Position numbers and translations under genes: made by a program | The notes under the pieces: model-generated | Told to the model about the DNA's origin: nothing | Database searches by the model: none | What the model saw: the letters and a program-made list of their open reading frames with translations, nothing else | Source: an uncultured Bacteroidales bacterium | Lineage (GTDB): Bacteria > Bacteroidota > Bacteroidia > Bacteroidales > GCA-2748055 | Direction of reading: 5' to 3' | DNA length: 64,000 bases | Assembly (NCBI GenBank): GCA_963771005.1 | Contig: CAVYRO010000003.1 | Coordinates: 868,657 to 932,656 of the forward strand | In this document: piece after piece, positions 19,515 to 52,476 of the stretch | Numbering within the stretch: position 1 is the stretch's first letter | Layout of the letters: every line of letters begins with the position of its first letter

Positions 19515-19692
19515 TGAAGAATTTGGAGTACTGTTTGAGATTGTTTGAGATTGTTTGAGATGGTTTGAAAGAAGAGGAACGCGGATTTGACGGATTTTGA
19601 CGGATTCCGGTAGCTATCGGAACGGATTTTGGATAGTTGACTCTTCATTCACCAAATCACCAAATCACCAAATATTCTTCATCCGCGTTCTA
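19515..19692. repeat. Mosaic intergenic repeat element (10-mer run, D module with hairpin, 8-mer run)
   Basis: The order is (TTGTTTGAGA)x3 plus TGGTTTGAAA, then GAAGAGGAACGCGGATTTGACGGATTTTGACGGA. Next comes the palindromic TTCCGGTAGCTATCGGAA, then (TCACCAAA)x3. The element closes with ATCCGCGTTC, the inverted complement of GAACGCGGAT. Confidence 0.85.
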
Positions 19693-21849
19693 TTCCCCTC
19701 TATAAACCTTCACTTCAATACCCGAAGGCCTCACCCTATCATGGTAAATGCGTTGGGTGGCGCGAATAAAATCCCCTTCACCGCAATGATAAATATCGGT
19801 AAACTGCTGTGGATTCCGGTCCACGAGCGGGAACCATGAATTCTGGACCTGTATCATGATCCTGTGTCCTTTCTGAAAACAATGCGCAATATCCGGCATC
19901 TCAAAGGATACCCGGGTCACCTCTCCCGGAGTAAAAGCTTCCGGTTTTTCATAGCTATTCCTGAATTTTCCGCGCATAACATCGCCCCTGATCAACATCT
20001 CGTAACCGCCCGAAGGGACCATGCCGTTTTCACCCGGCTTCATTCTCAGGTTCAGGGGGAAAGACGTCGATGAGCTTAACTACATAGTCTGCATCTGTCC
20101 CTGAAGTGCTAACATAAAGATCCACGTTGAGCGGACCCGTTAGCGTTAGGGATTTCGTGAGAGGCTGTGATTCATAGACCAATACGTCCGGCCTGCTGGA
20201 AGCAAATCTCTGGTCTGCAGTCATATAATCTGCTGTTCTTTTAAAATGGACGCCGGCAACATAAGGAACGGGATTTTCCGGATCAGAGACATATTCGTCA
20301 TAGCTTTCGGCAGAGTGGGGCGGTGTGAAGGAAAGACTTCCTCCGGGTTGAAGGTATAGAACAGAATCCGTCGTATTCCTGGGAGGCCATTCTGAGAAAG
20401 AATGCCAGTCGTTTGTCCCGCTTATAAAGACGGAAGCTTCCGGGAGATCCATTTTTCCTTCATCCTTCATGATAGAAGTTGAAGAATTTCATTTGCAGCT
20501 GGTTGAAATAATCCGTTGTATTCTCACCCCAGGAAACGTCGCCCAATTGCTCACCGGCACTCTTAGCCCACTGGTGATGAGACCATGGCCCCATTATGAG
20601 CCGGTTACTTTTCCCGGAGTTCTGGGACTCAATGGTTTTATAAGTCTGCAAAGTCCCAAACAAGTCCTCAGCATCATACCAGCCCCCGACAACAAGCACC
20701 GCAGGACGGAGATCACTGAGGTACCGCAGGGGATTTCTGGCTTTCCAGAATTCATCATAGACAGGATGATCCATCATCTCCGACCAGAACCGTACCGTAT
20801 CGCCGAAATATTTTTTCTCAGCGTTGCGGATGGGGCCCAGATCCAGGAAAAACCGGTAATTATCGCTGCTTTTGAACTCATATGTTCCAGGCCATTCCCG
20901 GATAAGACCGTGCCGGGGAATGCCAAAGGCCGAATAAAAGGAGAAGGCATCCGAAAGAAAGAAGGCCCCATGATGGTGCCAGTCGTCGCCCATGAACCAG
21001 TCGGTGACGGGAGCCTGTGGAGAGACGGCCTTCACTGCGGGATGTGCATCCGGCAGTGCCATGGTAGAGTAGAAACCCGGATAGGATACCCCCATGATTC
21101 CAACCCTGCCGTTATTATTTTTTACATTTTTTACCAGCCAGTCTACAGTGTCCCAGGTATCGCTGCTCTCATCCGTTTCCTTCCTCTTTTTCAGTTCGAT
21201 ATAAGGTCTGACATCCACGAAGGTTCCTTCACTCATGAACCTTCCTCGCACATCCTGCAAAACGATGATATATCCCTCCTCCAGGAAATGGGAATATTCG
21301 GAAAGCATACTCGAAAAGCCCGTTTCCGATGTTTCGATACGGTAAGGTGTACGGGTAAGGATTATGGGATAGTAATTCAAATTGCTTTTGGGGGAATAGA
21401 TGGAAGTATACAGACGGACTCCGTCTCTCATGGTGATGTAGACGTCCTTTTTGTCATACTGTGTCCTGATGAAAGTCGTATCCTTCCAGTCGACTGTAGA
21501 ATCCTGCCTTGTAAAATCGACTTTATATTTTACCCCGGACTGTGTCATACTACCGGTGATCAGGGCCGCTTTTTCTTCATACCGGCCCCTGTAGGTCAGC
21601 CCGCCCTGCCGCCAGAAAAAGTAAAACTGATTTCCGGTGAGGGAGATGCTGTCAAGTGAGATAGCATACGCATTCTGGTCCGGGCTGTCGAAATCACCTG
21701 AGAGCTTGTAGCCATCTGCCCGGATATGGAGGTTCAGGTGAAGTTCGGGACCCTTCAGGAGGGCATTCCAGTCGCCGGTTATGTCCTGCGCTGCGGCCGG
21801 GAATAGAATGAAGGCCAATAGAACCAGGAATATGAATGTTCTTTTTCAT
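19690..21849 (-). pseudogene. CocE/NonD-family (S15, X-Pro dipeptidyl-peptidase-like) hydrolase, interrupted by three frameshifts
   Basis: Three consecutive ORFs (20460..21818, 20030..20470, 19690..20043) together form one S15 protein, with nucleophile context GVSYPG and C-terminal domain MLIRGDVMRGKFRNS. The junctions are at about 20466 (FFNFY / KDEGK) and in a G5/C5 run at 20055-20059. The signal peptide MK(K)RTFIFLVLLAFILFPAAAQ is restored only if the T5/A5 run at 21842-21846 is shortened by 1 nt, starting from the ATG at 21849. Confidence 0.8.
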
Positions 21850-35721: not shown

Positions 35722-36258
35722 GAGCAGATTGTTTCAGGGGGAGTTTTACCACAGATACCACAGATTATCACGGATTAAGAGGGGTTGTTTCAGGTTGTTT
35801 CAGGTTGTTTCAGATTGTTTCAGATTGTTTCAGGTAGTTTCAATTCCATTCAACAAATCAACAAATCAACAAATCAATAAATCAACAAATTCTTCAGGTG
35901 GTTTCAGTGGGAGTTTTACCACAGATTTCACAGATTATCACAGATTAAGAAAGGTTGTTTCAGGTTGTTTCAACTCCATTCAACAAATCAACAAATCAAC
36001 AAATCAACAAATTTTTCGGGTGGTTTCAGTGGGAGTTTTACCACAGATTTCACAGATTATCACAGATTAAGAAAGGTTGTTTCAGGTTGTTTCAACTCCA
36101 TTCAACAAATCAACAAATCAACAAATTCTTCAGGTGGTTTCAGTGGGAGTTTTACCACAGATTTCACAGAATATCACAGATTAAGAAAGGTTGTTTCAGG
36201 TTGTTTCAACTCCATTCAACAAATCAACAAATCAACAAATCAACAAATTCTTCGGGTA
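35722..36258. repeat. Higher-order composite array: about 4.5 copies of a 114/122-bp unit built from the C, 10-mer and 8-mer modules
   Basis: The unit is TTCTTCAGGTGGTTTCAGTGGGAGTTTTACCACAGATTTCACAGATTATCACAGATTAAGAAAGGTTGTTTCAGGTTGTTTCAACTCCATTCAACAAA(TCAACAAA)n. Phase marks at 35890, 36012, 36126 and 36248 give periods of 122, 114 and 122 bp, depending on octamer count. The first unit carries (GTTGTTTCAG)x5. Confidence 0.9.
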
Positions 36259-39439: not shown

Positions 39440-40166
39440 ATGAACCTATCCGGAAATAAAATTCTGATCACCGGGGGAGCCTCAGGCATTGGCCTGGGCC
39501 TGGCGGAAAAATTCATTGGCGAGGGAAATTCGGTCATAATTTGCGGTCGGCGCGAGCCGGCGCTTGATGAGGCATCGGCGTTGTTTCCACCGGTAATTAC
39601 GCGCAAATGTGACCTGTTGGTGCAGGCCGAGCGCGAGGCATTGTTCAACTGGATATCCGATGAGCACAGCGATGTCAATGTCCTGGTTAATAATGCAGGT
39701 ATACAGCAACGGATGGGGATCCATGATGAAAATTTTTTCCCGCGGGCAAAAGAGGAAATACGGATTAATGTTGAAGCCCAGGTCCATTTGATCTCTCTTT
39801 TCCTGGGGTTGAAGTCGTTGGATACGATCCTCAATGTGACTTCCGGGCTCGCATTTGTTCCCATGACCCATGCTGCAGTTTACTCTGCCACAAAAGCCTT
39901 CTTCCATTCCTTTCACGGTTTCCCTCAGGGAGATCGTCAGGCAGGATAACATAGAGGTGATCGAGATCATTCCCCCGGCAGTGAATACGGATCTCGGGGG
40001 GAAGGGCGTGCATAGCAATGCCACCCCTGTCGGTGAATTTGCCGAAGCAGTTCTAAGTCAGCTCAGGCAGGGGAAGACAGAGATCACTTATGGTTTCACG
40101 GAAGGCATGCCGGCGTCTTCTCCTGATGATTTGGAGAAAATATTCAGGAGGATGAACGGAATTTAG
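39440..40166 (+). pseudogene. SDR-family oxidoreductase, frameshifted at the T3 run 39911-39913
   Basis: The cofactor motif is ILITGGASGIGLGLA and the active-site motif is YSATKAF. ORF 39440..39949 reads ..ATKAFFHSF and ORF 39870..40166 continues TVSLREIVRQDNIEVIEIIPPAVNTDLGG in another frame. Confidence 0.85.
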
Positions 40167-40520
40167 GTGTTGTTTGAAATGGTTTGAAATGGTTTGAAAG
40201 AAGAGGAACGCGGATTTGACGGATGTTGACGGATCTCACGGATTTTGGATAGTTGACTCTTCATTCACCAAATCACCAAATTCTCCGAGTTTACCACAGA
40301 TTTCACAGATTATCACGATACCGTGATTATCCGCACAAATCCGTCAATCCGTTTCCTCTCCACTTCACCAAATCACCACTTCACCAAATCACCAAATCAC
40401 CAAATTTCCGGGAGTTTCACCACAGATTTCACAATTATCACAGAAATTGTTTCAGTTGGTTTGAACTCCATTCAACAACTCAACAACTCAACAAATTCTT
40501 ACCAGATCCGTGTTCAGAGT
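40167..40520. repeat. Mosaic intergenic repeat element showing the full module grammar, including D and inverted D modules
   Basis: The order is (GGTTTGAAAT)n; GAAGAGGAACGCGGATTTGACGGATGTTGACGGAT; then (TCACCAAA)n; then ACCACAGATTTCACAGATTATCAC. Next comes the inverted D module (CCGTGATTATCCGCACAAATCCGTCAATCCGTTTCCTCTCC); then (TCACCAAA)n; CACCACAGATTTCACAATTATCACAG; and TTGTTTCAGTTGGTTTGAACTCCAT. The element ends with (TCAACAAC)n and ATCCGTGTTC. Confidence 0.85.
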
Positions 40521-40545
40521 TCAATAAGGTGTATATGAATGGATC

Positions 40546-41875
40546 TTAATGTCCTTTCTTTCCCATAAGCCCAATAACATTCGCGGTCATCGCCTCAATG
40601 CCCGTTTCAATCGCTTTCCGGTAATCGGCCTGCAAAACGGGTGAATGAAGCGGGGCAGGGGATTCACCTTTACTCTTTAGACCGGCCATTAGCTCCGGAC
40701 GTGTGACGCCGAGCCATACCAGGCATACCGGGATATTTTCAGGGGTTCTTCCATATTTCCCGAAATCTTCCGCGCCCATAACAGGTTTAACGGCAAACGA
40801 TATTTTCGCTTCCGAGAATGCCTCCGGAATATAAACGGATATCCCCCACAAGCGCCTCATCGTTCATTACGGGCGGAGTTTCGACGGTATCGATCTTTAC
40901 CTCGGGGAGGCGGTCTTCGGGCATACCGGCCGTGAGGGCGGCGCCCCGGCATATTCTTTCGATGGCGCTGATGGTCTTTTTGATCACCTCATCGTTATAA
41001 TAGCGCAAGGTGAGTTGCATTTTCACCTCATCGGGAATGATATTCGGACGCGTGCCGCCATGGATCGAGCCCACCGTAACGACCACCGGTTCGAGCGGGC
41101 TGATCTCGCGGCTTGCGATGGTTTGCAGGTCAAGTACGATCCGGGAGGAGATCACGATGGGATCGATACATTTTTCCGGGTAGGCACCATGTCCGCCTTT
41201 GCCATATACGATGATCTCCGCTGACTTAACCCCGGCAAGGGCAGGCCCGGTGACCAGGCCGATCTTCCCGGATTCCACATCCGGGTTGATGTGATAGGCC
41301 AGGGCATAATCCGGTACGGGAAATTTCTGAAATAATCCTGCGTCAATGGCCGCATCGGCGCCGGCGGAGATCTCTTCCCCCTCCTGTGCAATGACCATTA
41401 GGGTGCCTTTCCAGAGACCCTTCAGGGTTACGAGGGCATGCACCGTCCCCGCGAGGACCGACATGTGGATATCGTGGCCGCAGGCATGCATCACATAAAC
41501 TTCCTCGCCATTATCGTTTTTAGCCTGCTTTGTACTGGCGAAATCAAGGCCGGTTTTTTCCTTTACAGGAAGTGCATCCAGGTCGCATCGCAGCATGATC
41601 ACGGGGCCTTTGCCGTTCCTGAAAATCCCGACAACGTTATTGCCGCCGAAATTACGCGTAACTTCGAGGCCTGCACTCTCAAATTCCCCGGCCATCCGTT
41701 CGGCAGTCTGAAATTCCTGTAACGAGAGCTCGGGATTCCGGTGGATCTGCTTGCAAAGTTCATAGGCTTTGGGACTCTCAGTCTTAGCCGTAGCTATGAT
41801 CTTTTCGTTTACTTGTGAGGCAGCGTTCATTTGAAGAACGACGGACAATAAAAAAATGAGTTCAGGTATTTTCAT
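40546..41875 (-). pseudogene. M20-family amidohydrolase/peptidase (hippurate-hydrolase-like), frameshifted near 40820-40835
   Basis: The metal-binding motif is HACGHDIHM. ORF 40787..41875 reads ..PPVMNDEALVGDIRLY and ORF 40546..40860 continues IPEAFSEAKISFAVKPVMGAEDFGKY in another frame. The N-terminus is a signal peptide. Confidence 0.85.
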
Positions 41876-42137: not shown

Positions 42138-42627
42138 CTAATACAATGAAACCCCTCCGGGGTGCCGGGAACACGATCATCATATATTATGCGCGTGACC
42201 TTACCTCGGGAGTAACCATGAGTAATACAATTAAACCGCCTCCGGGGTGCCGGGAACACGATCATCGTATACAATGGACGTTTTGGTGGGTAATACAATT
42301 AAATCGCCTCCGGGGTGCCGGGAACACGATTATCATATATTATGCGCGTGACCTTACCACGGGAGTAACCATGAGTAATACAATTAAACCGCCTCCAGGG
42401 TGCCGGGACCACGATCATCGTATACAATGGACGTTATGGTGGGTAATACAATTAAATCGCCTCCGGAGTGCTGGGACACGATCATCGTATATTATGTGCG
42501 TGACCTTATCACGGGCGTAACCATGAGTAATACAATTAAACCACCTCCGGGGTGCCGGGACCATGATCATCGTATACAATGGACGTTATGGTGGGTAATA
42601 CAATTAAATCACCTCCTGTGGCAGATC
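42138..42627. repeat. 152-153-bp tandem repeat, about 3.2 copies, each made of two related half-units
   Basis: Both half-units begin TAATACAATTAAA(C/T)CGCCTCCGGGGTGCCGGGAACACGAT. Half H1 ends CAATGGACGTT(T/A)TGGTGGG, and half H2 ends TTATGCGCGTGACCTTACCACGGGAGTAACCATGAG. Phase marks are at 42221, 42374 and 42526. Confidence 0.9.
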
Positions 42628-42711
42628 TTCTCTTCCCTTTTTACTTTTTACTTTTTACTTTTGCCTTGGATTTTCTTCCCTCGGCGGGGTTTCAGATCCC
42701 TGAAACAATCT

Positions 42712-51881: not shown

Positions 51882-52476
51882 AATGTAGAACACGGATCCG
51901 GAAGAATTTGTTGATTTGTTGATTTGTTGATTTGTTGAATGGAGTTGAAACCACGTGAAACCATCTTTCTTAATCTGTGATAATCTGTGCAATCTGTGGT
52001 TAAACTCCCCGAGGAATTTGGTGATTTGTTGATTTGTTGATTTGTTGAATGGAGTTGAAACCACGTGAAACCATCTTTCTTAATCTGTGATAATCTGTGC
52101 AATCTGTGGTTAAACTCCCCGAGGAATTTGGTGATTTGTTGATTTGTTGATTTGTTGAATGGAGTTGAAACCACGTGAAACCATCTTTCTTAATCTGTGA
52201 TAATCTGTGCAATCTGTGGTTAAACTCCCCGAGGAATTTGGTGATTTGTTGATTTGTTGATTTGTTGAATGGAGTTGAAACCACGTGAAACCATCTTTCT
52301 TAATCTGTGATAATCTGTGCAATCTGTGGTTAAACTCCCCGAGGAATTTGGTGATTTGTTGATTTGTTGATTTGTTGAATGGAGTTGAAACAACCTGAAA
52401 CAATCCGAAAGAAGAGGGAACACGGATTTGACGGATTCCGATAGCCATATAGCCATCGGAATTCGTGTTCTACATT
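51882..52476. repeat. Higher-order array: 4 full copies plus 1 partial copy of a 110-bp unit, the reverse complement of the 35722-36258 unit type, bounded by imperfect 19-bp inverted repeats
   Basis: GAATTTG phase marks fall at 51904, 52014, 52124, 52234 and 52344, exactly 110 bp apart, and copies 2-4 are identical. The left flank is AATGTAGAACACGGATCCG (51882-51900). The reverse complement of the right flank (52458-52476) is AATGTAGAACACGAATTCC, matching at 16 of 19 positions with the first 13 perfect. Confidence 0.9.

Follow-up and report, generated by a model that had tools for sequence, protein, structure and literature searches.

The Locus and Its Repeat Modules

The window examined here is a stretch of 64,000 nucleotides from an uncultured Bacteroidales bacterium (assembly GCA_963771005.1, contig CAVYRO010000003.1). 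In it, two convergent genes are separated by a 379-bp gap that consists of repeat modules only (Table 1). The upstream neighbour is a short-chain dehydrogenase gene, whose TAG stop codon (40164-40166) is followed immediately by an array of type A, and the downstream neighbour is an M20 peptidase gene on the minus strand, which ends at 40546. One module of the gap, called D, is present in direct orientation and again, as D', in inverted orientation, and both contain short arrays of the unit CGGAT. D and D' are probably an orphan pair of inverted arms, derived from a CGGAT-type GxxExxY nuclease cassette and lacking its gene; copies of the cassette with the gene in place are found in other phyla.

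The two arms carry convergent arrays of at least three C-R-CGGAT units, four in D (40211-40243) and three in D' (40329-40351), and each has the end unit (A/G)GAACRCGGAT, intact on the left and minus one base on the right. The exact match to the core GGAACRCGGAT in D lies at 40205-40215 and reads GGAACGCGGAT; it is the core of D' (GGAA-ACGGAT, 40347-40356) that is short by one base, and one base is also missing from the next unit. D', which was recovered as inverted repeat I1, pairs with D in all three folds described below and aligns with the right arm of nine other units. The loop of about 77 nt between the arms is made of other repeat modules, and no GxxExxY gene lies in it; the element is therefore a gene-less derivative and not a full cassette. 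A third core, partial and absent from the list given in an earlier note on this DNA, closes the gap at 40506-40516. The module order of 40443-40494 recurs in composite units of 110-122 bp at 35858-36257 and 51904-52405, and H8-type context adjoins most of the 284 cores of the genome.

Both neighbouring genes are split into overlapping open reading frames (ORFs), at 39440-39949 and 39870-40166 for the dehydrogenase and at 40787-41875 and 40546-40860 for the peptidase. The splits may reflect frameshifts or may be indel errors introduced by long-read assembly, and in the latter case the 1-nt deletions in D' are possibly errors too.

Table 1. Repeat modules of the 379-bp gap and related features elsewhere in the genome (positions are those of the window unless a contig, C1 to C10, is given; TRF, Tandem Repeats Finder)
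Feature	Position	Strand	Sequence or unit	Remarks
A array	40167-40199	+	GTTTGAAATG x2.8	TRF row 40172-40199, period 10, 100% matches
D arm	40200-40243	+	core GAAGAGGAACGCGGAT (40200-40215)	further CGGAT units at 40220, 40230 and 40239; spacing 9-10 nt
Loop segment	40244-40264	+	TTTGGATAGTTGACTCTTCAT	common to other D...D' units; collinear with nine units and with window 19570-19700
H8 array	40265-40281	-	TCACCAAA x2 (TTTGGTGA on the minus strand)	TRF row
C arm	40287-40319	+	GAGTTTACCACAGATTTCACAGATTATCACGAT	CACAGAT units; faces D' with almost no loop
D' arm	40321-40361	-	reverse complement GGAGAGGAAACGGATTGACGGATTTGTGCGGATAATCACGG	inverted D module; ATCCG units at 40329, 40339 and 40347
Outer H8 array	40360-40405	-	CACTTCACCAAATCACCA...	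TRF rows; usual outer neighbour of the D core
Second C arm	40410-40446	+	GGGAGTTTCACCACAGATTTCACAATTATCACAGAAA	direct repeats D3/D5 with 40290-40309
F segment and array	40443-40494	.	GAAATTGTTTCAGTTGGTTTGAACTCCATTC, then TCAACAAC x3	TRF row 40472-40494
Partial outermost D core	40506-40516	-	ATCCGTGTTCA	relaxed core search; inverted repeat I5 region; 30 nt before the M20 peptidase stop
Closest relative in the window	19570-19700	+	terminal unit ATCCGCGTTCTAT	82% identity; complete D arm, right arm cut to the terminal unit
18-nt palindrome, examples	C2:628173; C2:853053; 19607-19624; 52433-52458		TTCCGATGGCTATCGGAA	
Bracketed PF05635 match	C1:2633		GTGAGTGA	
Bracketed PF05635 match	C1:4273		AAGTAAAA	
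Bracketed PF05635 match	C6:91862		TTTGTTGA	
Bracketed PF05635 match	C10:464652		GAAAGGY	
Bracketed PF05635 match	C4:137625		TGGTTTGAAA	

Recurrence of the D Core and of D...D' Units in the Genome

In the window, the core GGAACRCGGAT has five exact matches, against 0.06 expected; the 6.1-Mb genome has 284, where Markov models of orders 1-4 predict 7.5-9.9. In the approximately 1 Mb of intergenic DNA there are 255 matches, where about one is expected, so that the over-representation proposed for checking in the earlier note is borne out genome-wide. Of 338 cores, 308 are outside crudely called genes and are directed away from the gene closest to them, i.e., inward. Cores are found in 8.9% of convergent gaps, 5.7% of divergent gaps (36 gaps) and 3.9% of tandem gaps, and their density per kb is 2.3 times higher in convergent than in divergent gaps.

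Pairs of cores 60-450 nt apart are predominantly convergent (34 pairs with exact and 46 with relaxed cores, versus 3-4 divergent pairs). The unit of the window is collinear with nine others, which share the left arm, a TTTTAAGTAGGTGACCGTGACTYTTCAT spacer, TCACCAAA units and the right arm. Its closest relative within the window retains as right arm only the terminal unit (Table 1), and this unit is the end consensus that is found across phyla (see below). The earlier note had described that copy (19570-19692) as a smaller version of the same foldback, and GAACGCGGAT ... ATCCGCGTTCTAT are indeed in place; the inverted termini that it reported for the block at 51882-52476 are likewise present (AATGTAGAACACGGAT and, as reverse complement, AATGTAGAACACGAAT). 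Whole units with 88-97% identity are found on other contigs. In one near-identical pair, GGAAC is the exact point at which the similarity sets in, and it stops just past the inverted core, at GTTCCTCTTCCNCTTC. More generally, the breakpoints between similar copies fall at module borders, and array copy numbers differ among loci. The best full-length match of the window's own unit reaches 73%, and this copy is an old or recombinant one. The 18-nt palindrome TTCCGATGGCTATCGGAA often lies between two CGGAT units of the D arm, where it gives a small hairpin within the arm.

The element is unevenly distributed among related genomes. The 16-mer formed by the core with a GAAGA prefix (GAAGAGGAACRCGGAT) has 203 copies here and 0-1 in each of five genomes of the same genus. 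Arrays of at least three CGGAT units with a spacing of 8-11 nt number 111 by script, or 146 as pattern matches (0-3 for control motifs); in the same-genus genome G001 the pattern is matched 43 times, and in each of the remaining four 0-7 times. Array matches in genomes from two further families of the order number 55 and 14, and one of these genomes has the same convergent layout. In G026, which belongs to another family of the order (L024, 1200-1900; L025, 700-1500), convergent CGGAT arms enclose a 75-nt AT-rich loop in tandem units of 170-185 bp; these are followed by long ATCCGTGTCCAATyy arrays, which adjoin the only GxxExxY gene of that genome. In G047 and G050, of the same family, the reversed control motif TAGGC forms 25-58 arrays with that spacing. 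Lineages thus carry different families of short-period arrays, and the reversed-motif control is not always empty.

CGGAT Arms in Other Phyla and the GxxExxY Gene

The four-unit CGGAT pattern was scanned over one genome per prokaryotic species. It was found at no fewer than 120 loci, against approximately 4 expected, in more than 12 phyla including archaea; the loci listed come, among others, from Acidobacteriota, Chloroflexota, Planctomycetota, Verrucomicrobiota, Bacteroidota, Proteobacteria, Bacillota, Gemmatimonadota, Calditrichota, Methanoperedens and Methanosarcinales. Among the matches listed, 38 pairs of arms are convergent, 6 divergent and 4 direct, with loops of 5-480 nt, and the consensus of the outermost unit, aat.gaaCgCGGAT, is conserved from Chloroflexota to archaea and is the core of the earlier note. 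The CGGAT unit is conserved at a period of 9-10 nt, and the bases between units are variable. In these cross-phylum copies, an arm matches its own partner with a score of 23.4 and the partner of another element with 11.0 (0 of 5000 permutations). A viral scan returned 102 loci, largely plain direct tandems of a 10-mer in which CGGAT occurs by chance, without a GxxExxY gene, and so says nothing on phage carriage. PF05635, the four-helix-bundle family considered below, had no match in the 120 CGGAT loci listed.

At three of these 120 loci, the loop is 450-480 nt long and holds a single ORF of 108-134 amino acids that scores with TIGR04256/PF13366, the GxxExxY family. They belong to Thermoflexales (L044, Chloroflexota), Pyrinomonadaceae (L078, Acidobacteriota) and Ferruginibacter (L146, Bacteroidota), and the left end of L146 reads GGAACGCGGAT. 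In addition, a Flavobacterium locus (L108) has a GxxExxY gene directly beside its CGGAT array. A tree was built from 40 GxxExxY proteins, including 30 Bacteroidota proteins with CACAGAG, CGCAAAG or CACAGAT arms. In this tree, the proteins of L044, L078, L146, L108 and G026 form one clade that spans three phyla (support 100/99, branch length 0.95) and stands apart from the 30 Bacteroidota proteins; the arm label was equally clustered in 0 of 500 shuffles. Five more relatives of the L146 protein (66-86% identity) were picked by protein similarity alone, and all five genes have convergent arms, which end ATAGAACGC(G/T)GAT ... ATC(C/A)GCGTTCTAT.

Cassettes of the CGGAT clade also occupy one GT2/GT4 glycosyltransferase site in four metagenomic genomes (L291, L293, L295 and L297). 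Their proteins are 66-68% identical to the L146 query, and the arms are kept, with a partial change of CGGAT to CTGAT. This persistence of the arms at one site in four species indicates that they can last long and hints at a role in the cassette.

The GxxExxY family is very large, with more than 8,000 relatives scored in one search, and the gene was present in 85 of the 151 Bacteroidota genomes sampled. Two or more convergent CRCRRAK units on each side were found for 17 of 30 sampled Bacteroidota genes, against 0.2 expected per flank. Residues D67, E77 and K79, together with E28, the glutamate of GxxExxY, are invariant in 58 sequences. The AlphaFold2 (AF2) model has a mean confidence (pLDDT) of 95.5, and its leading fold hits include the RecB-like domain of AdnA, lambda exonuclease and the archaeal Hjc resolvase. 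These nuclease-fold matches are weak, with E values of 3e-3 to 2e-2 and not one under 0.001, and a sequence search of the PDB with a clade member gave no match. By its predicted structure and invariant residues, the protein looks like an active nuclease of the PD-(D/E)XK fold. PF13366 has been described as a family of unknown function that underwent multiple transfers (PMC3424549). In the papers searched, "GxxExxY" appears in passing mentions only and "PDDEXK_3" as of unknown function, and the repeat arms are not described. Relatives of the GxxExxY gene at C8:1628449 of the present genome occur in G001, G003 and G032 (61-64% identity), where the flanking units differ (GATGGAA, AATCCTG and AGAATT); the units of the arms thus change more quickly than the protein does.

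Orphan Arms and the Origin of the Other Modules

The present genome has five GxxExxY genes, which are associated with other repeat units and all fall outside the CGGAT clade, and the D arms found here are therefore orphans. Between convergent core pairs up to 4 kb apart in this genome, no GxxExxY or transposase-like ORF was found.

Other modules of the gap can be traced to other small genes of the same genome. One of its own GxxExxY genes (C4:134150) is bracketed by GGTTTAACCACGGATTACACAGATTATCACAGATT and an inverted copy of it, and the C arm of the gap is near-identical to the left of these two arms. An A-type 10-mer array, TGGTTTGAAA, in inverted orientation, brackets a PF05635 four-helix-bundle pseudogene (C4:137625), and an inverted 8-mer related to H8, TTTGTTGA, brackets a four-helix-bundle gene (C6:91862). 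Similarly, AAGTAAAA, which is the CTTTTTA array of window positions 42637-42662, brackets a PF05635 gene. Five of the six PF05635 matches of the genome are bracketed by inverted short-unit arrays, each with a different unit (Table 1); C6:265890 is not. All five kinds of array recur as modules of the composites between genes. One PF05635 cassette sits between two tRNA genes. Since the C module comes from a GxxExxY cassette and the A, H8 and CTTTTTA modules from PF05635 cassettes, the composite repeats are a patchwork of cassette arms.

The 153-Base-Pair Repeat and the Y1 Genes

The earlier note had also seen the core in an otherwise unrelated 153-bp repeat (42138-42627; GGGAACACGATCATC). The core-like stretch of this repeat, GGGAACACGAT, lacks the CGGAT unit and is not part of an array, and the match is coincidental. 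The 153-bp sequence type, which has CCACGGGCGTAACCGTGG and CCCCTCCGGGG as hairpins, is found in the flanks of a Y1/RAYT-like transposase gene (C8:90259-90585), as is the sequence type of the 17-bp CGGGCGTAACCTTACCA array that precedes the repeat in the window. The 153-bp repeat is thus a separate, REP/RAYT-like family. The genome has three PF01797 (Y1) genes, and their flanks contain other repeats, in one case the 153-bp type, and no D cores. Sequence of the 153-bp type also lies inside the loops of several D...D' units, e.g., C2:602095 and C3:742102.

The proposal that the core is a recognition sequence common to several repeat families is therefore kept in part. The core is conserved, enriched and the outermost unit of arrays in more than 12 phyla, which fits recognition; it belongs to one family, which has been recombined into composites.

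Foldback Potential and Absence of Covariation

A long imperfect foldback between D and D' had been predicted from the sequence, with about 40 nt of pairing around a 75-nt loop containing H8 and C modules. Folding of 40190-40370 agrees with this prediction: approximately 45 nt are paired, and the loop of about 77 nt holds these modules. The RNA fold has an energy of -57.2 kcal/mol (z -5.57, matched by 0 of 200 shuffles), and the opposite-strand RNA and the DNA gave z -4.66 and z -4.44, respectively. An inverted-repeat search at the locus returned arms of 19 nt with 79% complementarity.

To assess covariation, each left arm was paired in turn with its own right arm and with those of the 45 remaining units, leaving out the shared core, and the duplex energies were compared. 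The mean energy was -19.1 kcal/mol with the own partner and -20.8 kcal/mol with the partners of other units (permutation p=0.91, 46 units of this genome), and the compensatory change between D and D' that was sought among these copies is thus not seen. The arms do not pair preferentially with their own partner, which gives no support to a selected hairpin; the stem is a consequence of both arms being D modules rather than of maintained pairing. The earlier note had set its idea against the joint absence of covariation and of enrichment, and because only covariation is absent, the idea is not refuted. In the cross-phylum elements, each arm does match the opposite arm of its element, and inverted protein-binding ends would predict the same.

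No terminator-like site was found in 39900-40700, and a promoter scan of the same region gave two weak sigma-70-like matches, which carry no weight in a Bacteroidota genome. At gathering score, the whole window gave no Rfam match, and at E<=1 the region 40100-40600 gave only a chance-level match (E=0.88).

Proposed Explanation and Alternatives

The reading of D and D' as orphan cassette arms draws on the architecture of the unit and its recurrence in the genome, on the ends shared across phyla, on the gene in the loop of the full copies, on the link between arm type and protein clade, and on the orphan status of the arms here. The full form, as seen in other phyla, is a unit of about 500 bp in which a gene of 120-135 amino acids with a predicted PD-(D/E)XK fold lies between convergent arrays of three to five C-R-CGGAT units, 9-10 nt apart, with (A/G)GAACRCGGAT as the outermost unit on each side. 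In the present genome, only the arms survive, in approximately 280-340 copies that were presumably copied to dispersed intergenic sites as D...loop...D'. There, D arms would have recombined with C arms from the genome's own GxxExxY cassette and with A, H8 and CTTTTTA arrays from four-helix-bundle cassettes, giving rise to composites that fill gaps. The core would be the terminal unit of a putative protein-recognition array. The nuclease may bind or cut its own repeat units, and either its action or recombination and repair at the palindrome may spread the arms. The foldback potential would then result from the arms being inverted copies of one putative binding-site array, and not from a selected RNA hairpin.

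Several observations weigh against this explanation. The assembly is 99% complete, and neither the tree nor tblastn with five clade members revealed a CGGAT-clade GxxExxY gene in it; nor was one found in the array-rich genomes G001 and G032 (assemblies 80% and 91% complete). The gene is present in the array-rich G026. A cognate nuclease acting now cannot explain the copies, and the absence of its gene from three of four array-rich genomes weighs against a simple nuclease-driven spread, as does the lack of target-site duplications. The two arms of one unit here usually differ in subtype. In addition, the core is usually preceded in this genome by GAAGAG and another array rather than by unique DNA, which means that the copied unit is often larger than D...D'. 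Neither a target-site duplication nor an empty site has been shown. A duplication was seen neither at the ends of the 34 cross-phylum copies inspected nor where near-identical copies begin and end; most ends in this genome abut other repeats, so that the true ends are uncertain. Same-genus orthologues are only about 72% identical, with broken synteny and flanking genes 1.4-7 kb apart, and offered no clean empty site. Finally, the GT2/GT4 cassettes with their kept arms suggest vertical persistence as well as they suggest homing.

Four other explanations were weighed. The D/D' stem could act in RNA as a shared 3'-end hairpin retained by the host, whether as a bidirectional terminator, an exonuclease barrier or an RNase III site as in rRNA intervening sequences. 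The stable fold on both strands, the position of the element, which begins at a stop codon and fills a convergent gap, and the higher density of cores in convergent gaps speak for such a role. However, the arms do not covary within the genome, the stem comes with neither a U-tract terminator nor an Rfam match, and cores lie in 36 divergent gaps too. A 16-nt core present 0-1 times in five same-genus genomes is, moreover, not a conserved host function, and we consider an RNA role unlikely. It is also quite unlikely, in our view, that the inverted layout is a neutral by-product of slippage-expanded arrays that were shuffled by recombination until blocks abutted, with a core recognised by no protein. 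The high variability of the composites and of array copy numbers, the mixed arm subtypes within a unit and the breakpoints at module borders would be expected of such shuffling. An excess of convergent over divergent pairs that is 10-fold here and 6-fold among the matches listed from other phyla would not, nor would a 13-nt end consensus conserved from Chloroflexota to archaea or an arm type that follows the protein clade.

The spacing of the CGGAT units, close to one helical turn, raises the question of whether they are sites of a host DNA-binding protein (nucleoid, replication or regulatory) whose arrays organise the local DNA. The 9-10-nt period with a conserved unit and variable intervening bases fits this, as do the arms kept at one syntenic site across species; the patchy presence within the genus (146, 43 and 0-7 arrays) and the link of the arrays to one small-nuclease clade rather than to a host regulon make it very unlikely. 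Least of all do the data favour a classical MITE (miniature inverted-repeat transposable element), i.e., a deletion derivative of an insertion sequence moved by a DDE or HUH transposase that recognises its terminal inverted repeats. Its small size, inverted ends and many dispersed intergenic copies, some of them 88-97% identical, are those of a MITE, but no ORF resembling a transposase lies between convergent core pairs within 4 kb of each other; no target-site duplication was noted, the true ends being uncertain here; the repeats beside the three Y1 transposase genes are of other kinds; and the gene in the loop in other genomes encodes a nuclease-fold protein of 120 amino acids and not a transposase. 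Such an origin is highly improbable.

The orphan-arm explanation can be extended to the family as a whole, although here we are tentative and hold the extension for doubtful rather than probable. GxxExxY proteins might be sequence-specific nucleases that recognise their own flanking arrays, with units specific to each clade (CGGAT, CACAGAG, CGCAAAG and others). Gene and arms together might then form an undescribed class of horizontally moving elements, with orphan arms that multiply as REPINs or MITEs do and give rise to composites, GGAACRCGGAT being the terminal recognition site.

Comparison with Known Systems

In the papers searched, the closest published counterparts are REP/RAYT, NTS/Ssn and, for repeats of Bacteroidota, BrickBuilt. 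As in the REP/REPIN-RAYT system, there are many gene-less palindromic copies in intergenic DNA and a few that bracket a small nuclease-type gene, the copies are tolerated mainly at gene ends, and the type of repeat goes with the protein lineage. In contrast, the gene is a GxxExxY gene of predicted PD-(D/E)XK fold and not a Y1 transposase, and an arm consists of three to five units at 9-10 nt, whereas a REP is a single hairpin of 20-40 nt with a GTAG head. Furthermore, the three Y1 genes of the present genome have unrelated flanking repeats without D cores.

In the NTS/SRM-SsnA system, as described by Chenal et al. (2025; PMC11893778), a small nuclease family likewise goes with hundreds of short repeats around genes. 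The Ssn protein is reported there to interact specifically with the NTS repeat and to cut single-stranded DNA in a site-specific manner (PMC11893778). SsnA is of the GIY-YIG type, unlike the PD-(D/E)XK type considered here; the sequence and architecture of the repeats, as that source describes them, are unrelated, and GxxExxY is known from sequence and model only. The BrickBuilt MITE of Porphyromonas gingivalis, compared by its published description (PMC4596501), also belongs to Bacteroidota, is strictly intergenic and non-coding, has multiple forms per genome and shows small inverted ends around short tandem units. According to that description, BrickBuilt has one 23-nt unit, a leader and a tail, and 19 copies, whereas the composites here contain several 8-10-nt arrays of different origin, and their inverted ends are arrays of repeat units with relatives in many phyla.

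BIME of Escherichia coli and BOX of Streptococcus pneumoniae are modular intergenic patchworks too, with few types of module in variable order and number. They differ in that the modules described here are traceable to the arms of small-gene cassettes (GxxExxY or four-helix-bundle), an origin that, to our knowledge, has not been found for BIME or BOX modules. Similarly, in the 23S rRNA intervening sequences with a PF05635 ORF, a small gene is bracketed by inverted sequences that can form a long stem, and in the present genome the PF05635 genes stand between inverted A, H8 and CTTTTTA arrays, which occur in the composite repeats too. However, the element studied here does not lie in an rRNA gene, and its D arms go with GxxExxY and not with PF05635.

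Significance

Taken alone, this locus is ordinary, being one diverged, recombinant copy of hundreds. What the analysis adds is the assignment of the D core as the terminal unit of a cassette and of the CGGAT arm type to one protein clade, which held in five of five blind cases. It adds, too, that the D arms are orphans here and that other modules go back to other cassettes. About 300 arm copies are carried by a 6-Mb genome, and their end is conserved in Bacteroidota, Chloroflexota, Acidobacteriota and archaea and tied to a single clade. The composites break short-read assemblies and make long palindromes at gene ends, and they are best annotated as one family rather than as separate local oddities. 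If the protein recognises the arms, this would be a third partnership of a nuclease with a repeat, after REP/RAYT and NTS/Ssn; if true, it would mean programmable sequence specificities and would account for composite repeats that are common in bacteria and pass as "junk".

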